Notes: a model not told the origin generated them from the letters alone. A DNA stretch of 64,000 nucleotides from Gammaproteobacteria bacterium (GCA_041395445.1 JAWLAO010000009.1:6150-70149), one strand, 5' to 3'. Counted from the first letter of the stretch, positions 6,674 through 25,148 are shown. Made by a program: numbers and translations.

Positions 6674-6703
6674 GAGAGAGCTTCGCGGAAGCTCTCTTTT
6701 TTT
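6674..6703 (+). terminator. Rho-independent terminator of the TonB receptor gene
   Basis: GAGAGAGCTTC-GCG-GAAGCTCTCT followed by TTTTTT. Confidence 0.85.
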
Positions 6704-6708
6704 AATGC

Positions 6709-8550
6709 TTATTCAAACCCATCTTCAAAAATAATATCACTGGCATAAGTTTCATCGGCTCCGACATCATAAGGATCACCACTAATTGTTGGGTCATCCC
6801 AGCCACGATTCTCAAAGTCCATATCTTTACCAAACAATAAATCAGATGCATCACACAAGTCTCTAACAGGAGAAGTTGCTGCAATATGATAATCTCTACT
6901 CGCCGGATTAACAAACTGAGGATCAAATGTTCCTGATGGGTTTAATGGAGGTGTAACAAAAGATGCTATCTCGTGTGCAATTAAACAACGAACATCGGTA
7001 CTTCCTTGAAAGGTTGAATTTATGACAGTTCCCGAACTGCTATCATGAACAATTGAGTTTTGCATTTTCAACTGCGAACCATTTGCACTATGTATCTGAA
7101 ACACAGCTATTTCTGCGTTGTTATCGGCAAATGTGCTTTCATAAACCTTTATGACAGCTCCTAATATAGCGCTAATGACATAGTTATCCAGATAACCTCC
7201 ATTTCCATTATTACCATTGTGGTTAAATACGCTATTATCAATTTGTACACCTGCAACATGTCCCGGTGTAACACCATCCGGAGTCCTCGCAGAAATCGCC
7301 GTTCCCGTCGCGGCTCTGTTATCTTCAAAAAAAGCATTGCTGATTTGCACATTGACACTAGATGCCACATTGGAGCTTTCTGTATAAATCGCTCCTCCGC
7401 TTCCTCCTTGTGTGCGATTTGCAGAAAAGAAATTACATCTTTCCTCGTTCCAGCATTCCTTGTTCGATCTCCTAACGAACAAATAGGATTTATCGAATAA
7501 AGCTATTGCTCCTCCCTGTACATTAGCCGTATTATTATAAATCCATCCATCCAGGATTTCCATATAAGTGTCTGTTCCTCCCAGATAGACAGCTCCTCCA
7601 ACATTAGCAGTATTCTGTGTTAGACTGACGGGGAGAGAATCAGGATCACCATTACATGTTGCTCCTATACATTGGTTTCCATTTAAAGAAATATACGAAC
7701 CACCTGTCGCATAGATTCCGCCGCCATTATTATCAGCTGTGTTTGAATCGATTCCCCAAACCGCCGGGATGGAAGATGATCCGGAATAGAAATTAATTAC
7801 ACAGCCATTACTATAAATGCCTCCTCCATTTCCACCGAGTGCACCGGATGCAATAGCATGATTGAATCTGACAGAAGAGTAATTGGAAATATTCATGTTC
7901 AAAGAAGTTCCTGCTCCGGATGTCACACAATATATTCCACCTCCTGAAAACCCTGCTAAAGCGTCATTGCTATAAAAACTTGAGTTTTCAATATCTACTT
8001 GTGTGTGAAATGAAGACGATTGATTGATGATAGCCAACCCTCCGCCACCGACAGCTGATGAGTTATTCTGAATTGAGACATTCTTAATTGTTAGTGAGCC
8101 ATTAACATGACTCGCATACAAGCCGCCACCGGGTTCTAAATCAGAATATCCATTCTCAATGACAAGATTTTCGAATACAAAATCTCTTGGAGATGAAATC
8201 GATCCGTTTATCCATATTACCGGATTATCACTGGACACCAACCCCTGAATTGTTGCTCTCAAATGATTATCACTGATATTGGCATTGGCATTGGCACAAC
8301 TTGTAAAGCCTCCGCGCATAGAGATTCCAGAAAAAAGAACCAGATTTTCATCATATGTGTTGCTAACAATCCTGACTTCTGTAGCTCCTCCAAGATTATT
8401 CAATGCAGTTGTTATATTTGAAAAATCACAACCACTTGCTGTTGAACCTACAGTTACAAAACCAGCTCCATTAACAACTTCAGTTTCTGCGTAAGCTAAA
8501 TTTCCTAATAATAAAATAATCAAATATATTTTTTTCACACTCCACTCCAA
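6709..8550 (-). CDS. Secreted parallel beta-helix protein with Pmp-like GGAI/FxxN repeats
   Basis: Signal peptide KKIYLIILLLGNLAYA. Repeated GGGLY/GGGIY/GGAVY/GGAIA/GGAIY tetrapeptides alternate with FYSND, FEDNRA, FADNNA and IYNNTA. C-terminal YDVGADE, then the protein ends IIFEDGFE. No beta-barrel or TM anchor is visible. Confidence 0.8.
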   Translation of the reverse strand: MEWSVKKIYLIILLLGNLAYAETEVVNGAGFVTVGSTASGCDFSNITTALNNLGGATEVRIVSNTYDENLVLFSGISMRGGFTSCANANANISDNHLRATIQGLVSSDNPVIWINGSISSPRDFVFENLVIENGYSDLEPGGGLYASHVNGSLTIKNVSIQNNSSAVGGGGLAIINQSSSFHTQVDIENSSFYSNDALAGFSGGGIYCVTSGAGTSLNMNISNYSSVRFNHAIASGALGGNGGGIYSNGCVINFYSGSSSIPAVWGIDSNTADNNGGGIYATGGSYISLNGNQCIGATCNGDPDSLPVSLTQNTANVGGAVYLGGTDTYMEILDGWIYNNTANVQGGAIALFDKSYLFVRRSNKECWNEERCNFFSANRTQGGSGGAIYTESSNVASSVNVQISNAFFEDNRAATGTAISARTPDGVTPGHVAGVQIDNSVFNHNGNNGNGGYLDNYVISAILGAVIKVYESTFADNNAEIAVFQIHSANGSQLKMQNSIVHDSSSGTVINSTFQGSTDVRCLIAHEIASFVTPPLNPSGTFDPQFVNPASRDYHIAATSPVRDLCDASDLLFGKDMDFENRGWDDPTISGDPYDVGADETYASDIIFEDGFE

Positions 8551-8595
8551 TTTTTTAGCGACATCATTCTAAACAAAATTGAATCGTATCACATA

Positions 8596-10605
8596 CTAAT
8601 CAACCTGTTTTTTGACATTAATCATTTTCTGGCGGATAGCTTTCAGATAATTTTGAAGTTGTGAATCTGCTTTTTGTATTTTTTTGGGAGATTTTGAAAA
8701 TCTGAGTTTGATATATAAACTGATGAATTTATCAATTTCATCTTTCAGCTGAGGATATTGTTTTTTTATCAATTCGGAATACTCAATCACTCCTTGATAA
8801 TTGAGTTTCGTTAAGCCGTCTTTGGCAAATAATTTTATGAATTGATTGAGAACTTTATCATATTGACTCAGTTTTTGTTTGGGTCGTGTCAAATATAAAA
8901 ACAGCATAACCAAAACAGTTGTAGCCAGCATGATGCTTCCTAATACAATCACAATCGCTTTAGCATCTTGTTTCTCGAATCCAATAATTTGAAATAATGC
9001 TTTTTGTTTCAAAGCATTATATTCCCGAATCCACTTATTCCATTTGTGGCGCACACGATCATACTTTTCACCTAGTTTTCTATACCACTCTGTATCATGC
9101 CAACTGCGGGAGTTTTCAGAGATTAATGCTTGCGAACCTCGCTCCACTCTCAAAGGTGAAACTGCCGCCGTTGGATCAACTCTCATCCAGCCTTTTCCGT
9201 GAATCCAGACCTCAGACCAGGCATGAGCATCAGACTGTTTGACTTGTAAATATTCTTCGTTTACAGTTCCGCCTTGATAACCGGTGACAATTCGGGCAGG
9301 TACACCGGCTGCACGCATCATATAAGTGAAAGCCGATGCATAATGCTCACAGAAACCACTTTTGGTTTCAAACAAAAACTGATCAACGGTATCTCCCTGT
9401 AATAACGGCGGAGTGTAACTGTAATAAAATTCATCTTCAGCAAACCATTGAAGTATTTTTTGAATCAACTCAAGAGGTGATTTTGTGGATGATTTCCACG
9501 TTTGAACCAGTTGTTGGGTTTTGGAGTTGTAACCGGTTGGCAAATCTAATAATCTTTCAAAATCCGCTCTTGATAATGTTTCATAGGAATTAAATGGCTG
9601 TATCACAGAACTGGCTTGATAATGTCGCAATTGATTGATATCGAGTTCGGTCATTAGTTGTGAATCTGCTTTCAAGTCCGCTTTTGAGGGAAAATCGACA
9701 ATATAATCCAAAGCAAAAAGATATTTTTGACCGGTTGGTTCCAGTTCGACTTCATAATGAACGATTGGAAGGTCGTTTGGTTTTTTCAAATCTCTTTTAA
9801 CAGAACTTACCTTTTTATTTCGGCTCCAGGTCATTCCATCAAAATCCCACAGCACCGGTCCTCGCCAGTATAACTGCGACATTTCAGGAATTTCGCTATC
9901 AAATACAACCCTGAAAGCTGTTGAATCATCACTAAACAATTGAGAAATACTACCCGGTGACATTTCTTCACTAATGCCTGTTTTACCGCTTCCAAAAAAG
10001 TCAGGAGAACCCCAAATCGGACTGCCCAACCGAGGAAAGAATAGAAAAAACAATGCCGCCAAAGGTATTCCTGCCAGCATTAAACTACCGGTTTGTTTAA
10101 TCTCTGATTTGAGGAAGTATTTGCCATCATCATTATGTTGTAAAACAAATAATGTGTGGGTTATCACCAGAACCGAAGCAAGCAAATAGAGAATCAGCAA
10201 AATATCCTGGCTATAGAAAAAACGCGTCAGAATTACAAAGTAACACAGAGTCACTACCATCCAGGCATCACGTTTTCGCCAGGTTTCGAGGACTTTTAAG
10301 ACCGTCATAACAGCTAAAATCGTGACACTTAGCTCCCGATTCAGACCGATTCCATGCACATAAACAATGACCAATGTCAGAAACACCGTCATAAAAGCAA
10401 CGACAAAACCGGGCAATGGACGAACCCTTCTTCGTACTGTTAACCAACGAATGGTTACAGCCATCAATAACAAAATCGGAAACCAGATTGGAAGCCGCGG
10501 AATATGAGGTAACGTGGAAATAACAACCGACAACAATATCCAGAATATCTGTTTGGAACTCAAACTGTAAATTTCTGCTTTAGTCAGTTTCATTTTCCAG
10601 TCCAA
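8596..10605 (-). CDS. Membrane transglutaminase-like protein (multi-TM N-terminus plus transglutaminase core)
   Basis: About six TM helices. Cys-His-Asp core read as GFCEHYASAF, DAHAWSEVW and WMRVDPT. A further TM helix follows, then a C-terminal tail. Confidence 0.85.
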   Translation of the reverse strand: MDWKMKLTKAEIYSLSSKQIFWILLSVVISTLPHIPRLPIWFPILLLMAVTIRWLTVRRRVRPLPGFVVAFMTVFLTLVIVYVHGIGLNRELSVTILAVMTVLKVLETWRKRDAWMVVTLCYFVILTRFFYSQDILLILYLLASVLVITHTLFVLQHNDDGKYFLKSEIKQTGSLMLAGIPLAALFFLFFPRLGSPIWGSPDFFGSGKTGISEEMSPGSISQLFSDDSTAFRVVFDSEIPEMSQLYWRGPVLWDFDGMTWSRNKKVSSVKRDLKKPNDLPIVHYEVELEPTGQKYLFALDYIVDFPSKADLKADSQLMTELDINQLRHYQASSVIQPFNSYETLSRADFERLLDLPTGYNSKTQQLVQTWKSSTKSPLELIQKILQWFAEDEFYYSYTPPLLQGDTVDQFLFETKSGFCEHYASAFTYMMRAAGVPARIVTGYQGGTVNEEYLQVKQSDAHAWSEVWIHGKGWMRVDPTAAVSPLRVERGSQALISENSRSWHDTEWYRKLGEKYDRVRHKWNKWIREYNALKQKALFQIIGFEKQDAKAIVIVLGSIMLATTVLVMLFLYLTRPKQKLSQYDKVLNQFIKLFAKDGLTKLNYQGVIEYSELIKKQYPQLKDEIDKFISLYIKLRFSKSPKKIQKADSQLQNYLKAIRQKMINVKKQVD

Positions 10606-11566
10606 ATAATGCCAACGCTTTTAAGCATTTCAGATAATGTTCATTAGAATATCCAAAGCCAGAGTCAAACCCCGGTAATTTCAAGCAATAATCCAATTGC
10701 AATTTTTGAGCCTTCAAAACCCAAGCTGTCAATCGGGAAAGTTTCATTTCCATATCTGACAATGGAACAGTTGAATAGTCCAATAGCAATTTATCGCCCT
10801 GATGTTGCTGAAACTCACGACTAATCAACTCTCCGGTTTGAGCCGTTCTTTTCCATGCAATCAACCGCAAAGAATCTCCTGACTGAAAAGGTTTTAAACC
10901 ATGAAAATCATCACCGTGAGTTATTTTGGAGGCATCTCCTTCATCTCCGGCATTTTGTGGAAGCGGTGGAGGATTCACCTCCGGAATTGGATAAACCAAA
11001 CATTTCTCACCAATATTCACCCAAACCCAGGCGTAAAAAATTCCAAACGGAAAAGAGCTGTAAATTTTAACCTTATCACATTGCAACCACCCTCGTTTCT
11101 GTGATCTCAGCCGGTGTTTAATACTACTGAGTTGATCAGGTATCACCTCCAACACGCTATTTTCATAGCTCTTATTCTTTGTGCCAATATCAAATTTTGT
11201 TTCAGTTGTTTTTAAGTGTAATTTAAATATTGCTACTTCACCGGCAAAAACCGGCTGAGCCTCAACATGATGAATTGTCAAACTCTTCAAATTTAAAAAA
11301 GTTCTGTAAAGTGCAACCTGAGCAATTCCAAACAGCAAGAATGTCATCATTAAACCCAGATTATTATTAAAATTCAGACTGGCAATCAGCATCAAAAAAG
11401 TAACAAATCCAAAGAATATTCCGGGCTTTGTCGGTAATACAAAAATTCTTCTCCAATTTAAGTTCAGAGGCAAAGTTTCGGGACTTTTATGCAAAACCAG
11501 ATTCGGAGCAAATTTGGCAAATAGCCGGTCTTTAAATGACTCTGAATTACGGGATTTTTGTTTCAT
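10580..11566 (-). CDS. DUF58 family protein
   Basis: GDDFHGLKPFQSGDSLRLIAWKRTAQTGELISREF matches the DUF58 signature. It overlaps both neighbours, by 26 nt and 20 nt. Confidence 0.8.
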   Translation of the reverse strand: MKQKSRNSESFKDRLFAKFAPNLVLHKSPETLPLNLNWRRIFVLPTKPGIFFGFVTFLMLIASLNFNNNLGLMMTFLLFGIAQVALYRTFLNLKSLTIHHVEAQPVFAGEVAIFKLHLKTTETKFDIGTKNKSYENSVLEVIPDQLSSIKHRLRSQKRGWLQCDKVKIYSSFPFGIFYAWVWVNIGEKCLVYPIPEVNPPPLPQNAGDEGDASKITHGDDFHGLKPFQSGDSLRLIAWKRTAQTGELISREFQQHQGDKLLLDYSTVPLSDMEMKLSRLTAWVLKAQKLQLDYCLKLPGFDSGFGYSNEHYLKCLKALALFGLENETD

Positions 11567-12506
11567 GCAGAATTTCCGATAAGATATTCTTCACTTTTTT
11601 CTGAACTGAACGACTTCTCATCCTATGCTGAGCGACCGGCGTGAAGGCATTTTTCACATCCTCTGGAATCACAAAATCACGACCATTGATAAAAGCGATT
11701 GCCTGAGACAATCGAAACATTGCCAGCCCGGCTCTTGGTGACAAACCATCAACCAAAAGACTGTGGCTTCGAGTTTTGGCAACCAATTGTTGAAGATAAT
11801 CTTTAACTTCATCTCCGGCATAAAGCGACTCAATATGTTCCTGGACCTGGAGAAGATGTTTCTCATCAACCACTTTTTTCAAAGGTGCTCTAAAAGCGGA
11901 AGCAAACTGATCCGAATAGAGCTGTCTTTCAGATTGTTCAGAAGGATAACCGAGTGAAATACTGACCGTAAAACGATCCAGTTGTGAATCCGGTAAAGGA
12001 AATGTTCCGGCTTCATCTGTTGGATTTTGCGTGGCAATCACAAAAAATGGTTTTTCCAGTGGATAAGTTTTGCCATCGACACTCACCTGCTTCTCAGCCA
12101 TTGCCTCCAACAAAGCGCTCTGAGTTCTTGGAGTACCGCGGTTCAATTCATCAGCCAGCAACAGTCGTGTAAAAATTGGTCCTTGAAAAAACTTAAACTC
12201 AGACGTGTTCGGCTGGAAAATAGAAACGCCCAAAACATCACTTGGAAGCATGTCACTGGTAAACTGAATTCTTCTGAAGCTTAAACCCAATACTTGAGCC
12301 ATGGCATTCGCCAGAGTGGTTTTGCCTAAACCTGGTTTGTCTTCAATAAGCAAATGCCCGTTTGCAAGAATACATGCAAAAGCTAACTCTATCTGTTTTT
12401 GTTTATCAAATAACTTGTGACTCACCTCTTCAATCGCTTTGAGTATCAGTTGATTCTGCAATGTATTCTCCATTTGTTTTTTTAAACATAATAAACCAGT
12501 TCTCAT
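11547..12506 (-). CDS. MoxR-family AAA+ ATPase
   Basis: Walker A KPGLGKTT and Walker B LLADELNR, with a typical MoxR length. An alternative start at 12473 (MENTLQ...) is possible. Confidence 0.85.
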   Translation of the reverse strand: MRTGLLCLKKQMENTLQNQLILKAIEEVSHKLFDKQKQIELAFACILANGHLLIEDKPGLGKTTLANAMAQVLGLSFRRIQFTSDMLPSDVLGVSIFQPNTSEFKFFQGPIFTRLLLADELNRGTPRTQSALLEAMAEKQVSVDGKTYPLEKPFFVIATQNPTDEAGTFPLPDSQLDRFTVSISLGYPSEQSERQLYSDQFASAFRAPLKKVVDEKHLLQVQEHIESLYAGDEVKDYLQQLVAKTRSHSLLVDGLSPRAGLAMFRLSQAIAFINGRDFVIPEDVKNAFTPVAQHRMRSRSVQKKVKNILSEILHETKIP

Positions 12507-12676: not shown

Positions 12677-13480
12677 ATGTCCGAAATTGCAAATATACTT
12701 ATCGTTGATAACTCAAAATTAGCACGAGCCCTAACCAAAAAAACAGTTCAAAAAATTAAACCTGAAAGTGAAATTTTTTTAGCTGACAATGTGGCTCAAG
12801 CTAAAGAGATTATTACCGATAACTCGATTGACATGCTCATTACATCTTTGCTCTTATCTGATGGTGATGGCGTGGAAATTTGTAAATTTGTTCGTGCCAA
12901 TCAGCATTATATTCCTGTTCTTGTTATCTCCGGAGATGTTGACCACCGGGTTCAACAAAGACACATGGATGCCGATGTGACTGATTATTTAGATAAGTCT
13001 AAAGGTCAAAGTGGTCTGGAATTTTTTATTAAAGGGATTCTTGCACCGGAAGAAAATGTCAAAGGTCATGTTTTGTATATCGAAGATTCCAGAGTTGTTG
13101 CCCATGCAACTAAGAAAAATCTCGCAAATCACGAGCTGTCATGTGATCATGTTTTGTCAATTACGGATGCCATCGAATTATTGGAAAATAAAGAACATGC
13201 GATTACTAAATATGATGTGATTCTTTCCGATTATTATTTGAAAGATAATGAAACGGCTCAATGGCTGATTGAGTATGTGCGTGAGATTTTACAGATCAAT
13301 AAAATTGAACTTCCAATGGTCGTGATGACAGGCGACGAGAACGAAAAAAATCAAAAGAAAATCCTCAAATCCGGTGCTAATGATTTAGTTCTAAAACCGG
13401 TTGATAACGAAATTCTTATAAAAAAAGTCCAGTTCCAGATTCGTTTCAAACAGTTTCAAATGAATTCAGCAAAATCTTAG
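12677..13480 (+). CDS. Response regulator with two receiver domains and no output domain
   Basis: REC1: ILIVDNS ... LLLSDGDG ... VLVISGD. REC2: VLYIEDS ... ILSDYYL ... VVMTGDE ... LKP. Confidence 0.8.
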   Translation: MSEIANILIVDNSKLARALTKKTVQKIKPESEIFLADNVAQAKEIITDNSIDMLITSLLLSDGDGVEICKFVRANQHYIPVLVISGDVDHRVQQRHMDADVTDYLDKSKGQSGLEFFIKGILAPEENVKGHVLYIEDSRVVAHATKKNLANHELSCDHVLSITDAIELLENKEHAITKYDVILSDYYLKDNETAQWLIEYVREILQINKIELPMVVMTGDENEKNQKKILKSGANDLVLKPVDNEILIKKVQFQIRFKQFQMNSAKS

Positions 13481-13483
13481 TCT

Positions 13484-14167
13484 ATGGCTGAAGTCAAACT
13501 CCATCCCAGCTGGCTGAATGTCCTAAAGGATGAGTTTGAACTCCCTTATATGAAAAATTTGAAATCCTTTTTGTTAACTCAAAAACAACAAGGTAAGGTT
13601 ATTTATCCTAAAGGCGAAAATATTTTCAATGCTTTGAACTCTACACCGCTGGAAAAAGTGAAAGTAGTTATTATCGGTCAAGATCCCTATCATGGTCCGA
13701 ATCAGGCACACGGATTGTGTTTTTCAGTGAATAAAGGAATTGCTATCCCACCTTCTTTGAAGAATATTTACAAAGAACTTCATGATGATATTGGTTTTCA
13801 AGTTCCAAACCATGGGAATTTACAGAGCTGGGCGAATCAGGGAGTTTTGTTGCTAAATAGTGTTCTTACTGTTAATCAAAGTATGGCAGGAAGTCATCAA
13901 AACAAAGGCTGGGAAACTTTTACCGATAAAATTATTTCAGAACTCAATCAGCATCATACACACATTGTTTACATGTTATGGGGATCTTATGCTCATAAAA
14001 AAGGAGCTTCAATTAACCCTAATGAAAACCTAATTTTGAAAACAGTCCATCCAAGTCCGCTTTCAGCTCATCGAGGATTCTTTGGATGCCAGCATTTTTC
14101 CAAATGTAATAAATATCTTATCGAAAATGGAATCCAACCTATTGATTGGAAAATCAAAAACATATAA
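13484..14167 (+). CDS. ung: Uracil-DNA glycosylase (family 1)
   Basis: GQDPYHGPNQAHGLCFSV, LLLNSVLTV and HPSPLSA motifs. The start lies 3 nt after the upstream stop. Confidence 0.95.
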   Translation: MAEVKLHPSWLNVLKDEFELPYMKNLKSFLLTQKQQGKVIYPKGENIFNALNSTPLEKVKVVIIGQDPYHGPNQAHGLCFSVNKGIAIPPSLKNIYKELHDDIGFQVPNHGNLQSWANQGVLLLNSVLTVNQSMAGSHQNKGWETFTDKIISELNQHHTHIVYMLWGSYAHKKGASINPNENLILKTVHPSPLSAHRGFFGCQHFSKCNKYLIENGIQPIDWKIKNI

Positions 14168-15177: not shown

Positions 15178-17697
15178 CTACACTTTTGATTTTGCGCGAG
15201 ATATTGAGGAATCTAGCTCCCAAAAGTACTGATGGGAGTCATATTGTAAAGATTCATAATTGATATGAGCCATCAATCCGGGATCATCTATACTAAATGT
15301 GGCATTACCAAACTCATAAAGTTTCTTACGTTCATCATCTGTTACCGACAAATTGTGTTTAAAATAATTCTCACAATCATATTTCAACTCGATTGACAGA
15401 GGATAATCACAACTATCAACAGGCATACAGGACTGATTTAATTTTATGATTTCGGATAATTCTTGAGTATTCACTTGAGGATAAGTTTTCACGATATACT
15501 CACTAATTTCAGCATAAAACCGATACCAACCCACCGGAATGAATTTTGCTGTATCAAAATACCGAAACACCCAACTCGTAAACGGAAGTTCTTCAGTATT
15601 GGAGTTTATTTCCATCAATAAATCGTGTAAAAAATCTATTGCCTTAACTTGATACTCCCATTGCAAATATCTCATGACATATCTCAATACAGAGTATCCA
15701 TCAGCAATCATGTAGTAACGATTCAGTTGCTTCATCAGCTTGAGTTCGTCTTCACTGAAACTGAAAGACGATATGATGAAATCATTTTCATCAGTTTTAA
15801 TCTGATACTTTTCCAAATATTCCGGATTTGCCATGGGGCTATTCGGTAATAACTGAGTTGGATAGGCTTTGACCGACACATCCAAATCCATATATCTTTG
15901 CAAGTCATTTTTAAATGCCTGAACAGTAATTCCCGGCAGCCCTATCATTAAGTCTGTTGATAATGGCAGATTCAAATCAGAGAATACTTGAGCCAGTTCA
16001 TCATATTTTTCAGTTTTGATGTTTTTCCTGTTGATAACTTCTAGAGTTTTTTCATCTGTAGTTTGTATTGATATGATACCCTGACTGACAATTTGACCTT
16101 CTGTAAATATTTTAATAATTTCTGCCAGCCTCCAGGTGGAATTTTTTGTATAGTTAACAACCACTTCTTGAGGAAAACCATGCTTTTTCTTCATTTCAAC
16201 AATAAAGGAAGCCAATTCAATATCTCGGTCATACATACCGAAATTGGCATCGGCTATCCATAAAATCTTTGTCGATTTTTCAGCTATCCAACGTATTTCG
16301 TTTTTTACTCGCTCTAAATCGTATTTTCTGACTTTTTGACTGATAGCCGAACCCCAATCACAAAATGTACATCCAAAAGGGCATCCGCGATTTGATTCCA
16401 CAATCGCTGCATCAACCCGTCCGTCATAGCCATCAAATGTACCCTCAATGTAAGGGGATGGAATTTGGTCAGGTTCAGCCATTCTCTCTCTGTTAGCAGT
16501 TTTAATATATTCTCCATCTTGATTCGGATGGCGATAGGTGATGCCCTGTACTCCACTGAGCTTTTCATTATCGAACTCCAACCGATTATGATTTATCAAA
16601 ATACTATCTAAAACCTCACAAATTGTAACTTCGCCCTCATTATGAACAGAAATATCAACTGAATTATTTTTGTTCATAAAATCCCTGCTGGCTTGTAAGT
16701 AATTGGGAGTACTCGGTCCGCCATGAATTGTTATGTTTTCCGGATTGTGATTTTTAACTAATTTTGATATTTTCAAATTCAAATCAATTGACCACATATA
16801 GTTGGAAAATAACCATATCCCTTTACCAAATTTTCTATAAACCTGATTGAGCAGTACTTCAGGTGTGAAATACGAAATTGGAATGAAATTGAATATTTTT
16901 TGAAGTCTTCCACCATCATAGTGACTTAGAGAGCTGTGCAAAAGCCCTAATGCCAAAGGATAATGATTTTCCATGTGTGGAACAAAATAGACAGGGATCC
17001 TGTTATCAGATTCTAAGTCCTTCCAGCTTTGCTTTTGAGAAACTTGATTTTCCTGTTTAATTTGACTGGTCGTCTGCAGAGAAAGAAATGGGTGTTTTAC
17101 TTCTTCAATAATTAATTTCTTTTCTGCCAATTGGTAAAAGATTTTCTCTACATCTTCTTTTTTGATAATACCTAATTCGGATATCACTTCATTCATTGTT
17201 TTTCTTCCAACCACAGAAGATAAAACCAATAAATATTCTAACGGTAACTGATAATATTCTTCTTGATGAGAAAGACTAATCAGAAAGCCTTGTTCAGAGA
17301 CAAGAAGAGCAAAATTATTGCTGAGTTTGTATTTCTTTTCTACAGAACATTTAGAATCAGTTACTGGCAAACTATTAATTTTTTTTATATCTTTACAATT
17401 CGTTAAATAGTCGCCGGTAGTATTTGCATTGACTAATATAGAGTGCTCAATGTAACCCCTGATTTTATTTTCTGCAAACCGTATATCTTCTTGTTGTGTA
17501 TAAACATCTATAAATTGAAGTCCACTGACAAAACTATCAACGGACTTCTTTATTGTACAAGGAGTTATAAAGTTGTTTAAAATAATCAAATCTACCGACT
17601 CCATTCGGTATTTTTTATCAATTGAACTCAAAGAGTCAGTAATAAACTGACCATCTTTTTGTAAAATGATTATTTCAGGATTGAGAATGTATTCCAA
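15178..17697 (-). CDS. Radical SAM enzyme with a cobalamin-binding-like domain and a roughly 205-aa N-terminal extension
   Basis: CxxxCxxC cluster ESNRGCPFGCTFCDWG, with Cys codons at 16360-16383. The preceding Rossmann-like segment (IPVYFVPHMEN ... ITIHGGPSTP) is typical of B12-binding radical SAM enzymes. No SPASM-type Cys cluster is present at the C-terminus. Confidence 0.85.
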   Translation of the reverse strand: MEYILNPEIIILQKDGQFITDSLSSIDKKYRMESVDLIILNNFITPCTIKKSVDSFVSGLQFIDVYTQQEDIRFAENKIRGYIEHSILVNANTTGDYLTNCKDIKKINSLPVTDSKCSVEKKYKLSNNFALLVSEQGFLISLSHQEEYYQLPLEYLLVLSSVVGRKTMNEVISELGIIKKEDVEKIFYQLAEKKLIIEEVKHPFLSLQTTSQIKQENQVSQKQSWKDLESDNRIPVYFVPHMENHYPLALGLLHSSLSHYDGGRLQKIFNFIPISYFTPEVLLNQVYRKFGKGIWLFSNYMWSIDLNLKISKLVKNHNPENITIHGGPSTPNYLQASRDFMNKNNSVDISVHNEGEVTICEVLDSILINHNRLEFDNEKLSGVQGITYRHPNQDGEYIKTANRERMAEPDQIPSPYIEGTFDGYDGRVDAAIVESNRGCPFGCTFCDWGSAISQKVRKYDLERVKNEIRWIAEKSTKILWIADANFGMYDRDIELASFIVEMKKKHGFPQEVVVNYTKNSTWRLAEIIKIFTEGQIVSQGIISIQTTDEKTLEVINRKNIKTEKYDELAQVFSDLNLPLSTDLMIGLPGITVQAFKNDLQRYMDLDVSVKAYPTQLLPNSPMANPEYLEKYQIKTDENDFIISSFSFSEDELKLMKQLNRYYMIADGYSVLRYVMRYLQWEYQVKAIDFLHDLLMEINSNTEELPFTSWVFRYFDTAKFIPVGWYRFYAEISEYIVKTYPQVNTQELSEIIKLNQSCMPVDSCDYPLSIELKYDCENYFKHNLSVTDDERKKLYEFGNATFSIDDPGLMAHINYESLQYDSHQYFWELDSSISRAKSKV

Positions 17698-17712: not shown

Positions 17713-19680
17713 TTAATGCCCTATGTTTTCATCAAGAAACTTTAAGATTTTTTCATAAAGTTCGATACGATTTTCTATTTTATGAAAGCCATGACCTTCT
17801 TTCTTTTTATAAATTGTTTCATAAGGCTTACCAGCTTCTTTTAATTTTTTCTCCAAGAAGTATGCATTTTCAATTGGAACCCTAACATCATCATGACCAT
17901 GAACTAATAATAATTTGGCTTTAAGTTTATCAATATGATGTGCGGGGGATATTTTAGGCATTACATTTTCGTAATCATCTCCCATCATTTTTTTCATGTA
18001 GTACTCTTTCTGTTTAGTTCTACCTCCTTTAAAAGAATCCGCTTTTTTCCATTGTAATTCAACATCGTAGATACCCGCATCCGGTATCGAACATTTATAT
18101 AAATCCGGTTCTTTTACAACTGCTTGCATGGACGCATAACCACCGTAACTCACTCCATGAATACAAACTCTATCTTTATCAGCATAACCTTGATTGATTG
18201 CCCAATGAGTTACATCTGTTAAATCATCCTGCATTTTATAACCCCACTCTTGATCGCCGGCTTTCTCAAATGGCTCACCATACCCACCGGACCCACGATA
18301 ATCCAATTGAATCACCAGGTAACCTCTGTTTGCCAGCATTTGTGCTCTGTTATCCCATCCCCAATAATCTTTTGCTCCATAAGGGCCACCATGTGGATAA
18401 ATAACCAATGGTAGATTTTTTAATTCTTTCCCAGGTGGAATCGTCATTTGGCCATACATTTTTAAGCCATCTCTGGCATTCATAATGAATGGCTCTACAG
18501 AAGCCATATCTTTTGGCTTAATACTCGGTCTGGAGCTTGCTAAATATTTTGCACTATTTTTCTTCCTGTCAAAAATATAGAAATCTCCGGGATTTTTATC
18601 ACTATAAACATGAACTGATGCTAAATCCCTTTTTTTGTTATAATTATAAACAGTTACGTTTTCGTTTTTAAATGCTGCTCTTAGTGACTTATGGAATCCA
18701 ATTTCTTCATTTAACTTTTCATCTTTCAAATAAAAATAATTCCGATAGCCTGCATCATAATAAACTCCCAGCATTTCTCCTTCAGATCCGACAACAGAGC
18801 CAGCTATATCAACATCCGGATGTCTAAATAACTTATCAATCTTTTGAGTTTCAATGTTGAATGAAAATAATCCTAGTGTCCCGCCATCTTCTAAATCATG
18901 ATCAGATACAAAATATAATATTCCATTGTTTTTATGAATACCTATAAATGAGACAACTGGTACTTTTTTCTTTACTTTCGGCAATTCCAGATGATGCCAT
19001 TCTTGATTAAAGTCTTTATAGTGTAAATTGACTGTATCATCATCAAAATTGTTTCTGTCTTTTGGATCGTATTCAAATGCAATTCTTGGCTTTTCATTTA
19101 AGTCCACATCAATCGAATAAATAACAGAATCTCTACTCTCTCCAACCGGTTTCGGAGAATCATCAACATAAATTGTTTTTCCAGTGTAGACATTTAACTT
19201 AACTAAATTCCCTTCGCCTTTGTCTGTATAATGTCTTTTCAGCATCAATACATTTTTTGGATCATCTTCCAAAAGTGATACCATAGATAAACTTGCCATT
19301 TGATAGAGCCATAGATTAACCCTCTTTTTGCCATCTATATCTACTGCAAATAGAATTGGGTCTTTTCTGGCACCATCAAGCCAACCTGTTATATTTGATG
19401 CCAGAACTAATATTCTTTCATCATTAACCCACCAATATTGTGAGACTTCTCGCTCCTTGCCTACATCAAAGGTAAATACTCCTTTTTTGTTTTTTATATC
19501 CATGATTCCGAGCTTAATTTCAGTTTCATCTTCATAGGTGTATGCCAAATGTTTACCATTCGGCGATATTTTTATATTATTAATTTGTGATTTCTGGGCA
19601 AAGTCTTTTAGTGGAATTTCTTTTGCTTGAATTGATGTAAAAACAAAGAAAATCAGACTTAATATGATAATTTTTTTCAT
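17713..19680 (-). CDS. Exported S9 family serine peptidase (prolyl oligopeptidase/dipeptidyl peptidase type)
   Basis: Signal peptide MKKIIILSLIFFVFTSIQA, an N-terminal propeller-like region, and a catalytic triad read as GVSYGGY, HGHDDVRVP and EGHGF. Confidence 0.9.
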   Translation of the reverse strand: MKKIIILSLIFFVFTSIQAKEIPLKDFAQKSQINNIKISPNGKHLAYTYEDETEIKLGIMDIKNKKGVFTFDVGKEREVSQYWWVNDERILVLASNITGWLDGARKDPILFAVDIDGKKRVNLWLYQMASLSMVSLLEDDPKNVLMLKRHYTDKGEGNLVKLNVYTGKTIYVDDSPKPVGESRDSVIYSIDVDLNEKPRIAFEYDPKDRNNFDDDTVNLHYKDFNQEWHHLELPKVKKKVPVVSFIGIHKNNGILYFVSDHDLEDGGTLGLFSFNIETQKIDKLFRHPDVDIAGSVVGSEGEMLGVYYDAGYRNYFYLKDEKLNEEIGFHKSLRAAFKNENVTVYNYNKKRDLASVHVYSDKNPGDFYIFDRKKNSAKYLASSRPSIKPKDMASVEPFIMNARDGLKMYGQMTIPPGKELKNLPLVIYPHGGPYGAKDYWGWDNRAQMLANRGYLVIQLDYRGSGGYGEPFEKAGDQEWGYKMQDDLTDVTHWAINQGYADKDRVCIHGVSYGGYASMQAVVKEPDLYKCSIPDAGIYDVELQWKKADSFKGGRTKQKEYYMKKMMGDDYENVMPKISPAHHIDKLKAKLLLVHGHDDVRVPIENAYFLEKKLKEAGKPYETIYKKKEGHGFHKIENRIELYEKILKFLDENIGH

Positions 19681-19700: not shown

Positions 19701-20642
19701 TTATTTAATAAAAGTGTATAAAACACCACTATTTTGGTTACTGTTGTAATATATATCTTTCTTTGTTTGAAGTTTGAGTCCTTTTTCTTCGAAAGCATGA
19801 TACCAATTTGGGTTGTTATTAATTCTTTGTGCGACTGATAACAAATCATTCATTCTCAACTCTGCGAATTGAAGTTGTGATACAAAACCAATAATTCTTT
19901 CTTTATTTGCAGTTAATTCAATTTCTGACATGTGATACAAATTATCCATGAGCATTAAAACAGAACGAAGTAATGGGGAGTTTAATTTTTGAAAATGTCG
20001 TACAATTTCTGGCTGAATTTTTTTAAGTTTATCTCTGAAATCAAAATAATCATTCTTTCCTGTATAAAATTTTCTAACTTGACTGAGCAACTCAGAGTTT
20101 GAGAGAATCAGATAGTCATTTCTTTCAACTTCCATTTGTTTAATGATGTCGGTCGAGCCACTATGAGAAATCATTGTGAACTCTCCTCTCTTTTTTAATA
20201 ATTGATAAACTTTATCAGCTGCAATTTTCCAATCACAGTATTCAATACCGTATTGGCTGGTTATTAAGTCAAAATTTGCCGAAGCTAATTCTAAATCTTC
20301 TAAATATGTGTTAGCTACAATTTCTATATTTTGTATATCCCTTTCGACAACAGGGAATCGTTCAATAATTTGCTTTTTATTTATATCTGCCGCATCAGTC
20401 GCAGTGACTTTGAAATTTTTATCAAAATTTCTGGAATATTGTGATGCTAGAATTGAAACGGCACAATTGCCGGCACATAAATCTAAGATTTTTGAATTAT
20501 TACTTAAAGTCTTAAATCTACTCTCCCAAGCATCTAAAATTTCGCCACTATAATTTTCCACAAAATCTTGTGGTAACGAGGTTAACTGACCACTTTTCCA
20601 GTATTCGCTCCAATGTTGTGACTTGTTATTACCATCGTCCAT
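19701..20642 (-). CDS. Class I SAM-dependent methyltransferase with a roughly 140-aa C-terminal extension
   Basis: Motif I ILDLCAGNC, an N-terminal HWSEYW segment, and an acidic post-I residue. The start overlaps the upstream stop by 14 nt. Confidence 0.75.
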   Translation of the reverse strand: MDDGNNKSQHWSEYWKSGQLTSLPQDFVENYSGEILDAWESRFKTLSNNSKILDLCAGNCAVSILASQYSRNFDKNFKVTATDAADINKKQIIERFPVVERDIQNIEIVANTYLEDLELASANFDLITSQYGIEYCDWKIAADKVYQLLKKRGEFTMISHSGSTDIIKQMEVERNDYLILSNSELLSQVRKFYTGKNDYFDFRDKLKKIQPEIVRHFQKLNSPLLRSVLMLMDNLYHMSEIELTANKERIIGFVSQLQFAELRMNDLLSVAQRINNNPNWYHAFEEKGLKLQTKKDIYYNSNQNSGVLYTFIK

Positions 20643-22179
20643 TTAGTTTACCTTTAATCATTGATTTCAGTTCCTTGAGTGAGTCGCCATATTTTTTATA
20701 ATGCTTAACTGCTTTTTTATAAATCGGTTGGGAAACTTGAGCAGCACTTGCTGTATTAATACTGCGTTTGGTTTTATAAAAATTCATGCAGTTAAGCTCA
20801 AATTCTAAATTTAGAAAGTCTAATAATTTTCTAATTTGTAAATCAGGGTTTTTCACAACCTTTTCATATTTCACAGTATGAATTTGCTTAGGAAAATATT
20901 TCTTCCAAATTTTTACCATTTTTTTTTCAAAGAAATGATAATCAACTAATTCTTTCAAGTTAAAGCTATATTCGTTTCCTTGTGCAAAGTTCTGTTTGAA
21001 AGTACTTAGACAAACATCCATCGAGTTTCTCTTTGTGTGAATGAAACGAGCATTCGGATTTGTCATTAAAATAAAGCCCAAATATATAAAATTTGCATGG
21101 TATTTATCTGTAAATATATTTGTTTCTTTATGATATTTACTAGTATTTATTAAGTAATTCTCACCAAGCTGCATCAATTGTTTATTATTTAAATTCGTAA
21201 GCCCATGAGGAAATCCCCCCTTAAGGTCTTGCATTATATTTTTCAAAGCTAGCAGTTCACTTGCCCCTGTTACTTTTGAATGTGTTGCAACTATTTGTTC
21301 AACCAAAGTGGAGCCTGATCTTGGCATTCCAGCAATGAATATGGGAATATTTTCATTATCACTTATTTGAGCTTGATTGAAATCATCGTATTTGTTTTGA
21401 AATATTTTTTTAATTTCATTGTATAATTTTTTCCAATCAGTTGGTGCACGGTTAAAGCTTATAAATTTAATTTCATTGGCTTTAGTTAGGATATCGAATG
21501 ACTTTTTATACTTTTTATTATCTTCTAAATATTTTGCTTTTGCAAAAAGAAGAGTTTGGATATCCCTATGATAAGTTACTTTTTCAAGCATTTGCTCAAT
21601 AAAAAGTATCTCGTCATTTTTAAATTTGTATGTTTTTAAATCAGCAAGCATCCAGTAAACTTGCGGTTGGTACGGGTTGATAGCTAATGCCTTATGAATT
21701 TGTTCAACTGCTTGTTCCGTTTTTCCATTATTTTTTAACAATAATGCATAATTTAATAAACAATCAATATACTGAGGTTGGAGCTCTAGTGTTTTTAAAA
21801 AATGGACTTCAGCTTTTTCAAAATTATTTTGTGCCTTAAATAAATTTGCCATCAAATAATGAGCTTCCACCGAGTCAGGAGATATTTCTAAAACTCGAGA
21901 TACAAGCTTAATACCTGTTATATAATCAGCTTTAATTTGTTTAATGAAAGCTAAGTTCAGAAGAGTTTGCTCATGGTTTTTATCGAGTACTAATGCTTGT
22001 TTAAAACTCTTTTCTGATTGTAATAACTTCTTTTCATGTAGAAAAATAATTCCTATTAAACGATAAAGCTCAGGATCTTTTTTATTTTTTTTTATTAAAG
22101 ATTTAAGAAGTTTATGAGCACTTGAGTATTGTTGTTGCTGAAGAAGTAAGTCGATGTCCTGTTGTAATTGACCATTCAT
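20629..22179 (-). CDS. TPR-repeat sulfotransferase
   Basis: About 270 aa of TPR repeats, followed by a sulfotransferase domain with the PAPS-binding loop IAGMPRSGSTLVEQ. Confidence 0.85.
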   Translation of the reverse strand: MNGQLQQDIDLLLQQQQYSSAHKLLKSLIKKNKKDPELYRLIGIIFLHEKKLLQSEKSFKQALVLDKNHEQTLLNLAFIKQIKADYITGIKLVSRVLEISPDSVEAHYLMANLFKAQNNFEKAEVHFLKTLELQPQYIDCLLNYALLLKNNGKTEQAVEQIHKALAINPYQPQVYWMLADLKTYKFKNDEILFIEQMLEKVTYHRDIQTLLFAKAKYLEDNKKYKKSFDILTKANEIKFISFNRAPTDWKKLYNEIKKIFQNKYDDFNQAQISDNENIPIFIAGMPRSGSTLVEQIVATHSKVTGASELLALKNIMQDLKGGFPHGLTNLNNKQLMQLGENYLINTSKYHKETNIFTDKYHANFIYLGFILMTNPNARFIHTKRNSMDVCLSTFKQNFAQGNEYSFNLKELVDYHFFEKKMVKIWKKYFPKQIHTVKYEKVVKNPDLQIRKLLDFLNLEFELNCMNFYKTKRSINTASAAQVSQPIYKKAVKHYKKYGDSLKELKSMIKGKLNGRW

Positions 22180-22319: not shown

Positions 22320-24950
22320 TTAGAAAGTTTGAGTATATCTGAAGTAAGTCACACGACCAAAACCATCATATAAATAATAGTCATAATCACGATCACCAAT
22401 CGCACCTAAACCGATAGGAGGATATTTTTCAAATAGATTTCTTGCACCTACTGTAAACTTACCATCCCAAGGAGCGTTGTAGTTGAACTGTAGATCATGA
22501 GTTGTCCAAGAAGGAGCCGCATCATAAGTACTATCAGCTGTTTGAGAATCAATATAATTGATATTCCAAGCTACGTTCCAATCTCCATACGAATAAGTAT
22601 TATTCAATATAGCACGGTGAGAAGGAAGACCTGCTTCACCAGCTGTATCGCGACCACCATCAACAGAAGAGTCTAATACATGTGAAATTTGGAAATTATT
22701 AGAAACCTGACCACCTAAGAACTCATAATTGAACCTTACATTCAAATCAAGACCAGATGTTTCAACAACACCTTGGTTACCGAAACCTCTAACAATTCCA
22801 GTAATACGACCTGTAGTTGAGTTACGATTTACAGACAATCCAGGAGGCAATTCCAAACCTTCATTCCCTAGATAGATTAAGTATGCAGAAGTGAATGAAC
22901 GAATTCTATTGTCAATTTCGATATTATAATAATCCAAAGTCATGTTCATCCAATCAACAGGCTCATAAGCAAGTCCTAAAGAGTATTGCTTAGAAGTTTC
23001 TGCTGACAAGTTTGGATTAGCTGTAACTGTTGCATCAACTTGTACACGACAACCTGCTGCCTGACCTAAAGCCAAACAAGTAGGATCATCTTGAATAGTG
23101 TCTGCTGAGAAAGAATCTTTCTGAGTTAAGATATCCAAAGTTGGAGCTCTGAAACCTTCACCATAAGAAGCACGTAAAGTCAGATTATCCAATGGTTGAT
23201 AACGGAAAGAAACTTTTGGTGAAAACTCACTACCAAAATCAGAATAATCGTCATAACGACCAGCTAAAGACATTTCCAAATTAGGTAGGAATGGAACCAA
23301 TGCTTCGAAGTAAATCGAATCTACGTCGCGATTACCCGCTGCTGAGTTACCAGCCGAACCACCGATTTGGCCAGCTTCTGACAATGAATCATATTGATCC
23401 GAGTATTTGATTTTTTGTGTTTCAGCACCGACATATACAGATACTGGACCATTTTCCATTTCAAACATATCAAATGCAACAGAACCAAACATCTCATCCA
23501 AGTCATATTTACTGATTCTTGAAATAACAACTTTCATACTGTTCAGAGTTGTTGGCGAGTTACCATACGGATTCCATAGGTCATAAGCACCAGACTCAAT
23601 TGCTGCACGAGCAGCTGAACGTAACAAGTAGTTGTTACCAATGTCAAAAGTTCTGTTGTTAGAACGTGTTACACCAAATTCAACTTCAGCATTACCAATA
23701 TTACCAGTTGTACCCAATTGGAATCTTGTCAGTCTGTTAGTTACAGTACTGTCACGATTTCCAAGTGCGTCATAACGGTGATAAACCGCAATCGGCTGAT
23801 TCACTACCGGTTGACCATATAAATTAGTCAAGTTAGGATTATAATATGGTGAACTTGGATTGGTTGGATTGTTTGGGCTACTTGCAGATACATACGCATA
23901 ATCAGGAACCGGAGCATAACGTCCGAAAGATTCTGTTTCTGCAACAGAAACATTCATCCAAACCTGCCAGTCATCATTCACGTCATAAGAACCTTTCGCA
24001 TAGAAAGACTGGTTATCAGTTGACGCATCATCAGCAGATACCGAAGCAAAATTAAAACCACAGAAAGGCAAACCTTGCGAGGTAGTTACTGGAGTGAAAG
24101 CCGTACCCGGGAAGTTACAAGCACCAGGCAATGACTGCAAAAGTATATCATATTCATAAGCACCTGTATCAGGATTAACTGTATTTCCTGTAACAAACCA
24201 ACTTTCCATGTTATTGCCATATGTCGAAAGACCTGGCGAATACCATGGATAATCACGTGCAAAAACAATTTCACGACTATTCCATGAAACACCTGCTAAT
24301 AAACGTGAACGGTCACCTGAAGCACCAAATACGATAGAACCTTCTTCTCTGTCACCGCCATGAGCAGGAATAGAAGCTTCAGCTCCACCAATCATCATTT
24401 CAACACCTTGGAAATCAGTACGTAAAATTACGTTGATTACACCACCGATTGCATCTGAACCGTAAATCGCAGAAGCACCATCAGAAAGAACTTCAATTCT
24501 TTCAATCGCACCAGCTGGAATTGTGTTCAAATCTTGGTTGCTACCAGTAGATGGCGAAGCAGGTAGTCTACGACCATCAATCAGCACCAATGTTCTTGAA
24601 GAACCCAAGCCACGCAAACTAACAGCAGACACACCTTGAGCAGAGCTACCAGATTGTGGACGGAATGAACCCGCACTGTTGAATGTTAAGCTACGAATGA
24701 AGTCAGCAGCAGAAGATTCACCGCTTAATTCAATTTCTTCACGTGTAATTGTAGTTACAGGTAACGCTTGTGCAACGTCAGAACGTTTAATACGTGAACC
24801 AGTAACAACTTGTTTATCAAGTTTTTCTTTATCTGCACCCTCGTCTTCATCTTGTGCGAAAGCTACACCACCAAGTGCAACTGAAGCAACCAGACCAGAA
24901 TACAAAGCAGTTTTAATTGCGCTAGCAATAGGATTACGCTTTATTTTCAT
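22320..24950 (-). CDS. TonB-dependent receptor
   Basis: I prefer the start at 24950 (GGAGAAACAAATG) over the ORF-track start 24974. Signal peptide, TonB-box-like VVTGSRIK, a plug, and a barrel ending FRYTQTF. Confidence 0.9.
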   Translation of the reverse strand: MKIKRNPIASAIKTALYSGLVASVALGGVAFAQDEDEGADKEKLDKQVVTGSRIKRSDVAQALPVTTITREEIELSGESSAADFIRSLTFNSAGSFRPQSGSSAQGVSAVSLRGLGSSRTLVLIDGRRLPASPSTGSNQDLNTIPAGAIERIEVLSDGASAIYGSDAIGGVINVILRTDFQGVEMMIGGAEASIPAHGGDREEGSIVFGASGDRSRLLAGVSWNSREIVFARDYPWYSPGLSTYGNNMESWFVTGNTVNPDTGAYEYDILLQSLPGACNFPGTAFTPVTTSQGLPFCGFNFASVSADDASTDNQSFYAKGSYDVNDDWQVWMNVSVAETESFGRYAPVPDYAYVSASSPNNPTNPSSPYYNPNLTNLYGQPVVNQPIAVYHRYDALGNRDSTVTNRLTRFQLGTTGNIGNAEVEFGVTRSNNRTFDIGNNYLLRSAARAAIESGAYDLWNPYGNSPTTLNSMKVVISRISKYDLDEMFGSVAFDMFEMENGPVSVYVGAETQKIKYSDQYDSLSEAGQIGGSAGNSAAGNRDVDSIYFEALVPFLPNLEMSLAGRYDDYSDFGSEFSPKVSFRYQPLDNLTLRASYGEGFRAPTLDILTQKDSFSADTIQDDPTCLALGQAAGCRVQVDATVTANPNLSAETSKQYSLGLAYEPVDWMNMTLDYYNIEIDNRIRSFTSAYLIYLGNEGLELPPGLSVNRNSTTGRITGIVRGFGNQGVVETSGLDLNVRFNYEFLGGQVSNNFQISHVLDSSVDGGRDTAGEAGLPSHRAILNNTYSYGDWNVAWNINYIDSQTADSTYDAAPSWTTHDLQFNYNAPWDGKFTVGARNLFEKYPPIGLGAIGDRDYDYYLYDGFGRVTYFRYTQTF

Positions 24951-25148
24951 TTGTTTCTCCAAATATTTATCCATGAGTCTCCTCTAAAAAAGTTATTATC
25001 GTGTTAGAAATCCTCTCTTCCGACGGAATATTAACATTTAAATAATACAAAAAAAAGAGTGAGATGCGTTTTTTTTATCTTTTATTAACAAATTTTTTAC
25101 AAAAATACACATTCAATAACAATCACCTGAAATGATTGATTAAAGTAG

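Follow-up and report, generated by a model that had tools for sequence, protein, structure and literature searches.

The locus analysed here raises the question of whether a long N-terminal extension of a radical S-adenosylmethionine (SAM) enzyme is a pair of peptide-recognition modules and, if so, whether the enzyme acts on a ribosomal peptide. The gene is located on the minus strand at positions 15178..17697 of a 64,000-nucleotide stretch of DNA from a Gammaproteobacteria bacterium (GCA_041395445.1, JAWLAO010000009.1:6150-70149), here called the window, and encodes a protein of 839 amino acids with a TTG start codon. The original prediction held that 17083-17697 encodes two tandem modules resembling PqqD and the recognition elements (RREs) of enzymes for ribosomally made, post-translationally modified peptides (RiPPs), the first module being the weaker copy, and that their fusion to a class-B radical SAM enzyme would point to a ribosomal peptide substrate. 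This interval is exactly residues 1-205 of the protein, and the strings on which the prediction was based were recovered without change in the translation of the open reading frame (ORF): LNPEIIILQKDGQFIT...MESVDLIILNNFITPCTIKKSVDSF...IRGYIEHSILV corresponds to residues 4-89, and KLSNNFALLVSEQGFLISLSHQEEYYQLPLEYLLVLSSVVGRKTMNEVISELGIIKKEDVEKIFYQLAEKKLIIEEV to residues 124-200. The TTG codon at 17697 lies 15 nucleotides beyond the end of the S9 peptidase reading frame upstream of it and is preceded, about 10 nucleotides upstream, by an AAGG Shine-Dalgarno-like motif. Since the family alignments start near query residue 4-5, this TTG, and not Met32, is the start, and the N-terminal β strands are part of the protein.

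An AlphaFold2 (AF2) model of residues 1-225 was built on a 41-sequence alignment of the family N-termini. The model was confident (mean predicted local distance difference test score [pLDDT], 87.7; predicted template modelling score [pTM], 0.83), and the same arrangement of three or four β strands, three α helices and a further strand occurred in it twice, at residues 1-100 (module 1; 17398..17697, minus strand) and 121-200 (module 2; 17098..17337, minus strand). Module 1 consists of strands 2-5, 9-14, 17-22, and 30-32, helices 34-41, 49-62, and 68-84, and strand 88-90, and it carries a family-invariant D36 and a nearly invariant R78. Module 2 consists of strands 122-125, 130-134, 137-142, and 147-151, helices 153-162, 168-174, and 180-192, and strand 196-198, in agreement with the run of strands followed by helices that had been guessed from its sequence. 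Both modules thus show the RRE arrangement of three antiparallel β strands followed by three α helices in a winged-helix fold, according to the model and to Foldseek. The best Foldseek match of the N-terminal model in the PDB was the cyanobactin azoline oxidase ThcOx (8PZ5/5LQ4; E 5e-4, probability 1.0); it extended over approximately 230 columns, that is, over both modules, with a sequence identity of 9-12%. By manual count, 44 of the top 50 matches were RRE-bearing RiPP enzymes or RRE-like domains. ThcOx was followed by many MccB chains, TfuB1, TbiB1, and PqqD, and further down by McbBCD, TigE, MibB, MadB, SuiB, the PbtF RRE, and the RRE-like domain of BmdC. With template modelling (TM) scores normalized to the target, in these cases small RRE proteins, and root-mean-square deviations of 2.6-3.5 Å, the lasso-peptide leader binders TfuB1 (6JX3) and TbiB1 (5V1V) gave TM scores of 0.65 (2.8 Å) and 0.67, respectively. 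PqqD (5SXY) gave 0.62 with 21% identity, so that the comparison with PqqD and RRE structures which the original prediction had proposed as a check returned winged-helix RRE matches. PqqD, TfuB1, TbiB1, and the N-terminal domain of MccB have the same β3-α3 winged-helix fold as both modules. The non-RRE exceptions in the top 50 were Rickettsia PKMT1/2, FAM91A1, and NO66. On the basis of the model, both halves very probably have the PqqD/RRE-type winged-helix fold known as the "peptide clamp" and form a tandem duplication. The boundaries of module 1 were placed from the AF2 model, its homology to module 2, and the ThcOx match, and those of module 2 from the AF2 model, the Foldseek RRE matches, and an hhalign alignment to PqqD.

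DNA-binding winged-helix regulators are expected to far outnumber RREs in the PDB, and no such regulator was present among the top 50 Foldseek matches. This result bears on the view that the N-terminal pair consists of DNA-binding winged-helix domains with a regulatory, moonlighting function. The sub-threshold Pfam noise in family members was indeed rich in families of this kind (SarA/Rot, HxlR, MCM_C, RTP, ArsR HTH_5, and Rrf2), but every one of these matches was below threshold. Moreover, the strands precede the helices in both modules, which is the RRE topology, and there is no wing after helix 3. A DNA-binding role is accordingly very improbable.

The relationship between the two modules was also detected in sequence profiles. 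The profile of module 1 (residues 1-100) aligned with that of module 2 (residues 118-205) over 69 columns with an hhalign probability of 95.5% and an E value of 1.5e-8, and the "weaker copy" at residues 1-90 is therefore a genuine homologous duplicate of module 2. Conventional searches with residues 1-205 gave nothing significant in Pfam, in NCBIfam, or in a phmmer search of PDB sequences. A Pfam scan of the 41 family N-termini returned just sub-threshold winged-helix noise, the N-terminal profile returned noise alone from the PDB sequences (Med18, eS10, and topoisomerase III; E >0.3), and a word-indexed search for homologues of the isolated N-terminus retrieved a single near-identical fragment. 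For comparison with PqqD itself, a profile of genuine PF05402 proteins was built from a Klebsiella PqqD query, confirmed to be 98-99% identical to the database PqqD. An exhaustive search of a representative library with the profile of its relatives yielded 857 proteins at E values up to 0.001, and 105 representatives out of 150 listed among them were used as a diverse PqqD profile. This profile replaced a shallow one restricted to Enterobacterales, which had given hhalign probabilities of only 1.7% and 0.1%. Module 2 aligned with the diverse profile in the correct structural register (probability 51%, E 1.5e-4, 60 columns). In a distantly related subfamily (loci L073-L081, from Halioglobus, Acidimicrobiia, and others), module 1 aligned with the entire length of PqqD (74%, E 2.9e-5), module 2 aligned with module 2 of the window (72%), and one homologue matched the Pfam PqqD family at an E value of 0.046 (14.5 bits, with a cut-off of 23.4). 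In sequence, a relationship to PqqD is thus suggested but not established. As for the likeness to PqqD and RREs originally proposed, the fold has held, and membership of PF05402 has not, no match having been obtained at threshold.

Homologues found with the full-length query formed a large family of proteins of approximately 820-865 residues, nearly all covering 99% of the query. Of the 120 best homologues (788-867 amino acids, and one of 723), practically every one has the N-terminal extension, and all 120 are annotated with PF04055 only. When one genome per species was scanned, at least 584 loci were confirmed. The best 80 of these were mostly from Gammaproteobacteria, and the carriers include Marinicella, Arsukibacterium, Rheinheimera, Glaciecola, Alteromonas, Kangiellaceae, Lysobacterales, and Wenzhouxiangella, and distant copies occur in Halioglobus, Acidimicrobiia, and Acidobacteria. 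The extension of the distant subfamily is of equal length. An identity to the query of merely 16-22% and the lack of any database domain match might be expected if the modules were a chance pattern in AT-rich coding sequence and the extension a poorly structured, non-functional appendage. This explanation is effectively refuted by the confident AF2 model, the significant internal repeat, and the mutually consistent structural matches; the extension also keeps its length in practically every one of these 120 homologues and in the distant subfamilies.

Divergence in the family alignment was distributed very unevenly along the protein. The mean identity to the query was 15.6% for module 1 and 21.7% for module 2, compared with 55.7% for the cobalamin domain, 77.0% for the radical SAM domain, and 42.2% for the C-terminal domain. 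The N-terminal extension showed few gaps despite its very fast divergence. Fast divergence of the clamps beside a conserved radical SAM domain is expected of clamps that follow a variable recognition sequence around an unchanging chemistry.

The catalytic part of the protein was assigned by homology. The best NCBIfam match was the KedN5 subfamily (NF033712), with 248 bits over residues 246-816. The cut-off of this model is 700 bits and was not reached; judging from this score, the family is related to, yet distinct from, the KedN5 subfamily. A phmmer search of PDB sequences returned TokK (E 6e-60) and CysS (E 8.5e-51) and nothing else. The full-length AF2 model (pLDDT 87.7, pTM 0.87) matched TokK in Foldseek with an E value of 4e-33, a target-normalized TM score of 0.71, and 24% identity over approximately 656 columns, the TokK chain having 661 residues. 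CysS gave TM scores of 0.70-0.73, and TsrM, AprD4, and MgmA were far behind. Across the three-domain core, the identity between TokK and the query was 23-24%. The core comprises a Rossmann-type cobalamin-binding domain (residues 233-425; 16423..17001, minus strand), delimited by the phmmer alignment to TokK and the Foldseek matches to TokK and CysS; a radical SAM domain (residues 426-640; 15778..16422, minus strand), matched by Pfam PF04055 at residues 435-599 (E 1.6e-17); and a helical C-terminal domain (residues 641-839 and the stop codon; 15178..15777, minus strand), delimited by the Foldseek match to TokK and the AF2 secondary structure. According to the model, this last domain corresponds to the C-terminal substrate-binding domain of TokK and CysS and is not a SPASM/twitch domain.

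The [4Fe-4S] motif C439-x3-C443-x2-C446 (CPFGCTFC; 16360..16383, minus strand), recognized from the sequence, the invariant columns, and the TokK alignment, is followed by D447 and W448. All three cysteines are invariant in 82 family sequences, as are W302 and W448, which pair with Trp76 and Trp215 of TokK by residue count along the phmmer alignment. In TokK, Trp76 lies under the corrin, and Trp76 and Trp215 are reported to be conserved only in TokK, ThnK, and CysS (bioRxiv 10.1101/2021.07.10.451909). Sequence and model comparisons therefore predict that residues 233-839 make up an entire cobalamin-dependent radical SAM methylase with three domains, belonging to the TokK/ThnK/CysS (KedN5-like) clade, and the class-B assignment in the original prediction agrees with the homology of the core to TokK and CysS. 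TokK, ThnK, CysS, and KedN5 share with the enzyme of the window the homologous core, the CxxxCxxC motif, and the clade-specific tryptophan residues, and differ from it in lacking the N-terminal RRE pair. TokK methylates the carbapenem C6 side chain sequentially, CysS extends a methoxy group to branched alkoxy groups, and enzymes of this clade belong to actinomycete or myxobacterial antibiotic clusters. Residue 12 of TokK pairs with query residue 236 in the phmmer alignment, and the first 225 residues of the query have no equivalent in TokK. Since TokK aligns from its own residue 12, the tandem clamp and its linker are an addition absent from the characterized members of the clade. This linker between clamps and core (residues 201-232; 17002..17097, minus strand) is of low complexity and predicted to be disordered (pLDDT <50 at residues 206-214; mean identity to the query, 16%). 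The linker between the two modules (residues 101-120; 17338..17397, minus strand) has a pLDDT of 71-83 and a mean identity of 8.5%.

The closest structural match also provides a precedent for the arrangement. In ThcOx, residues 7-86 form the peptide clamp, and residues 87-194 form another, the first clamp burying the binding site of the second (PMC5108345). Because this tandem clamp has been solved, an N-terminal tandem RRE on a tailoring enzyme is not without precedent. ThcOx, like the enzyme of the window, has two consecutive RRE-fold modules at the N-terminus; on the other hand, its catalytic domain is a flavin mononucleotide-dependent, nitroreductase-like oxidase and not a radical SAM domain, and its gene cluster includes a known precursor peptide, whereas no linked one accompanies the enzyme of the window. 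Compared with PqqD and stand-alone RREs, the modules are duplicated in tandem, score below the PF05402 threshold, and likewise lack a linked precursor. SuiB and TigE, too, are radical SAM enzymes with an RRE fused to the N-terminus. However, these cross-link-forming maturases have a single RRE and a SPASM/twitch domain with auxiliary clusters, whereas the enzyme of the window has two RREs, a cobalamin-binding Rossmann domain, and no SPASM domain. CteB is another RRE-fused SPASM/twitch radical SAM RiPP maturase. In the open-access literature searched, neither an RRE, single or tandem, on a TokK-type cobalamin-dependent methylase nor this family was described. Thus, the fusion of an RRE to a radical SAM enzyme is known for SPASM/twitch maturases, and a tandem RRE on a TokK-type methylase appears to be new, as no paper in the open-access literature searched reports one.

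We favour, with moderate confidence, an account in which tandem RRE-type clamps, a linker, and a TokK-type methylase make up an enzyme whose clamp binds a peptide or protein, which is then C-methylated. In this account, at least one clamp would bind an extended peptide or protein segment as an added β strand against β3/α3, like known RREs; the other clamp might have a structural role or be occluded, as that of ThcOx is. The bound residue would be held in an active-site tunnel made by the cobalamin-binding, radical SAM, and C-terminal domains, where methylcobalamin and the 5'-deoxyadenosyl radical would perform one or several C-methylations. The step of peptide or protein binding by the clamp, taken by itself, seems slightly better than an even proposition. 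By analogy, the enzyme would work like an RRE-guided RiPP maturase that lacks the linked precursor by which a RiPP cluster is defined.

Several results weigh against a peptide substrate. ORFs of at least 35 amino acids were clustered in 83 loci, and intergenic ORFs of 12-99 amino acids within 4 kb of the radical SAM gene were inspected. No conserved precursor-like ORF of 12-99 amino acids was found within this distance in 80 loci, and none was found in the two closest relatives (L083 and L084). The intergenic gaps in the operons of the window, L083, and L084 measured 10-180 nucleotides, and such compact operons leave no room for a hidden precursor gene. In many loci, for example those of Marinicella, the radical SAM gene stands alone among housekeeping genes. 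In addition, PF05402 was absent from the query and the 41 family members even at E values up to 10 in Pfam, and module 1 of the window had an hhalign probability of 0.2% against the diverse PqqD profile, with no detectable similarity. The RRE fold does not always bind a leader, as exemplified by the second clamp of ThcOx (PMC5108345) and by the RRE-like domain of BmdC, which acts in a non-ribosomal context and does not bind the leader peptide (PMC8795117). Finally, the characterized enzymes of the TokK/CysS/KedN5 clade use pantetheinylated or carrier-bound small molecules and not peptides (bioRxiv 10.1101/2021.07.10.451909).

These results are taken up by the chief alternative, in which the modules are RRE-like in fold only and serve for docking or as a scaffold, in dimerization or in contact with a partner protein, while the enzyme methylates a small or carrier-tethered molecule. 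A carrier protein, the methyltransferase, and the tetratricopeptide-repeat (TPR) sulfotransferase encoded nearby would be candidate partners. Such a role agrees with the substrates of the closest relatives of the core, with the lack of a precursor gene, with the reuse of the fold in BmdC and in the occluded second clamp of ThcOx, and with the presence of Rickettsia PKMT1/2, which are protein methyltransferases, among the Foldseek matches. However, genes for carrier proteins, non-ribosomal peptide synthetases, and polyketide synthases were absent from all of the approximately 80 neighbourhoods. Fast divergence of the clamps is also seen more typically when a domain co-evolves with a variable peptide than when it forms a fixed protein-protein interface, and the recurrent TPR-fused sulfotransferase and S9 peptidase are peptide-oriented enzymes. 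We regard the scaffold as a minority possibility, though one of some substance, and retain peptide or protein binding as the preferred reading. The ribosomal peptide substrate of the original prediction was not corroborated by the search of the loci; it is plausible and stays unproven because no precursor has been identified. The substrate gene is outside the radical SAM locus, and an unlinked precursor gene is possible.

The intergenic ORF clusters that occurred in more than three loci were all lineage-specific, namely a Marinicella membrane protein with its antisense shadow ORF and ORFs of Arsukibacterium present in up to five loci. The Marinicella protein (74-90 amino acids) is encoded directly downstream of the radical SAM gene in L001 (12630-12863) and 10 further Marinicella-type loci (L003-L005, L007-L009, L012, L015, L027, and L051). 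It ends in LLLPFCW(V/A/F)S and is followed on the opposite strand by a gene for a TonB C-terminal-domain protein; as an extremely hydrophobic membrane protein, it was rejected as a precursor. The clustering of ORFs of at least 35 amino acids yielded a further, conserved Arsukibacterium protein (94-119 amino acids), which is encoded between the S9 peptidase and radical SAM genes in L002 (9562-9870) with equivalents in L020, L022, L029, and L030, contains two cysteines and a PPPGG end, and is absent from the window. Being a lipoprotein that bears a lipobox, it was rejected, and so were the PspA/B/C-like genes of Kangiellaceae loci. In the window, the radical SAM gene is followed by two small genes encoding a secreted-looking protein of 136 amino acids with an N-terminal hydrophobic stretch and a membrane-like protein of 138 amino acids. 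They were discarded as precursors for want of conservation, similar-sized downstream ORFs being present in one of the two closest relatives and none in the other.

The radical SAM gene is the last of a five-gene block on the minus strand of the window. Immediately upstream, and probably in the same operon, is a gene for an S9-family serine peptidase (17713..19680; Pfam Peptidase_S9, E 3.8e-52) with a hydrophobic, signal-peptide-like N-terminus, which adjoins the radical SAM gene also in L002, L020, L022, L029, L030, L083, and L084. It is preceded by genes for a class-I SAM-dependent methyltransferase (19701..20642; Pfam Methyltransf_25/11), with which a PDB sequence search gave no match, and for a TPR-repeat protein fused to a sulfotransferase (20629..22179; Pfam Sulfotransfer_3, E 4.7e-36, and TPR families), which retrieved TPR proteins only from the PDB sequences, plus a marginal match to the CurM sulfotransferase. 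The block is headed by a gene for a generic TonB-dependent outer-membrane receptor (22320..24974), whose NCBIfam matches are partial and all below cut-off. The gaps within the block are approximately 15-140 nucleotides, except that the sulfotransferase gene runs 14 nucleotides into the methyltransferase gene. The block is kept in the two closest relatives on long contigs with the receptor and sulfotransferase swapped (L083 2653-12523 and L084 2588-12532), and a phosphoenolpyruvate carboxykinase gene lies just upstream of it in the window, L083, and L084. The receptor was considered as a BtuB feeding vitamin B12 to the enzyme, and this was rejected, as it scored far below the BtuB equivalog cut-offs and no riboswitch was present. 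No Rfam family reached its gathering score in the 64-kb window, which thus contained no cobalamin riboswitch, other riboswitch, or small RNA detectable by this means.

Neighbours were counted within five genes of the radical SAM gene in 79 loci after clustering of ORFs. A TonB-dependent receptor was found in 26 loci and a TonB C-terminal-domain protein in 13, and at least one component of the TonB system was present in 37. The class-I methyltransferase, found in 23 loci, was directly adjacent in 14 of them and was the commonest direct neighbour. The TPR-sulfotransferase occurred in 12 loci, and also in L083 and L084, the S9 peptidase in nine, and a tryptophan-halogenase-like gene and a small sulfotransferase gene in six each. 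The halogenase-like genes encode proteins of about 500 amino acids that resemble FAD-dependent tryptophan halogenases, and they are sometimes paired (L037 17291-18805; also L016, L043, L048, L049, and L057). The sulfotransferase-like gene of about 280 codons recurs in neighbourhoods with a halogenase-like gene, a receptor, a methyltransferase, and the radical SAM gene.

A related order of reactions has been described for the biosynthesis of the pearlin 3-thiahomoleucine, in which the methyltransferase TmoS, the cobalamin-dependent radical SAM enzyme TmoD, catalysing iterative methylation, and the protease TmoG act in turn on a peptide (PMC9303977). This logic is mirrored in the locus by the class-I methyltransferase, the cobalamin-dependent radical SAM enzyme, and the peptidase. 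TmoD is a singleton in the published similarity network of cobalamin-dependent radical SAM enzymes and stands outside the TokK/CysS group (PMC9303977). Moreover, the locus of the window was found to contain neither a carrier peptide, nor a peptide aminoacyl-tRNA ligase (PEARL) enzyme, nor a separate RRE protein, all of which the tmo cluster encodes (the last as TmoI). Since the methyltransferase gene is often adjacent and since the homologues CysS and KedN5, like the analogue TmoD, lengthen a methyl group attached to a heteroatom, it is plausible that the neighbouring methyltransferase would O- or S-methylate the substrate and that the radical SAM enzyme would then extend the methyl group to an ethyl, isopropyl, or tert-butyl group. 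This specific order, proposed by analogy, is tentative and on balance unlikely to be correct in every step. Processing of the product might then fall to the S9 peptidase, and uptake of the product or its precursor to the TonB-dependent receptor. Taken together, these steps would amount to an unrecognized pathway in several hundred mostly gammaproteobacterial species, in which a tandem-RRE methylase acting after a methyltransferase would build branched alkyl groups on O or S of a peptide or protein encoded by an unlinked gene and served by a dedicated TonB-dependent receptor; we put this forward as a speculative proposal and consider it doubtful as a whole.

Bioinformatic searches for new ribosomal peptide natural products rely mainly on RREs. 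Because the 120 close homologues carry PF04055 only and are invisible to the Pfam PqqD model, the family marks a blind spot of this approach. The combination of a tandem clamp with a TokK/CysS-type methylase joins two separate fields, namely the recognition of RiPP leaders and the iterative alkylation of small molecules by B12-dependent radical enzymes. If the clamps bind a peptide, the enzyme would be a peptide-directed catalyst for the installation of ethyl, isopropyl, and tert-butyl groups and, within the TokK/CysS clade, the first enzyme directed by an RRE. A function would also be found for one of the puzzling tailoring-like gene sets beside TonB-dependent receptors; for the set seen here (methyltransferase, TPR-sulfotransferase, S9 peptidase, and halogenase-like genes), no function was obtained from curated family models or literature searches. 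If the clamps bind no peptide, they would add to BmdC and the second ThcOx clamp a further case of reuse of the RRE fold as a scaffold.

Some further features were noted in the family and in the window. In the distant subfamily, two or three paralogues of the tandem-clamp radical SAM gene are adjacent to each other, as in L076 (Actinomycetes metagenome-assembled genome; 9164-11842 and 12495-15122), L080 (Halioglobus; 6619-9174 and 9245-11803), and L081 (Halioglobus; 21-2384, 2276-4912, and 8644-10326), which suggests several enzymes working in series or on different partners. In nine loci, mostly of Glaciecola and Alteromonadaceae (L014, L017-L019, L040, L041, L052, L058, and L067), the radical SAM gene lies directly 3' of metA-like and split metH-like genes and is followed by a gene for an M13-like peptidase. 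From its sequence, we take the metH-like gene to resemble that of B12-dependent methionine synthase; any connection of these neighbours with the metabolism of B12 and methyl groups may be fortuitous. The G+C content of the window has its minimum (30-35%) at 14-22 kb, across the block from the receptor gene to the radical SAM gene. On the plus strand, 12677-13480 encodes a 267-amino-acid protein with two tandem response-regulator receiver domains and without an output domain, and it is followed by a uracil-DNA glycosylase gene at 13484-14167.

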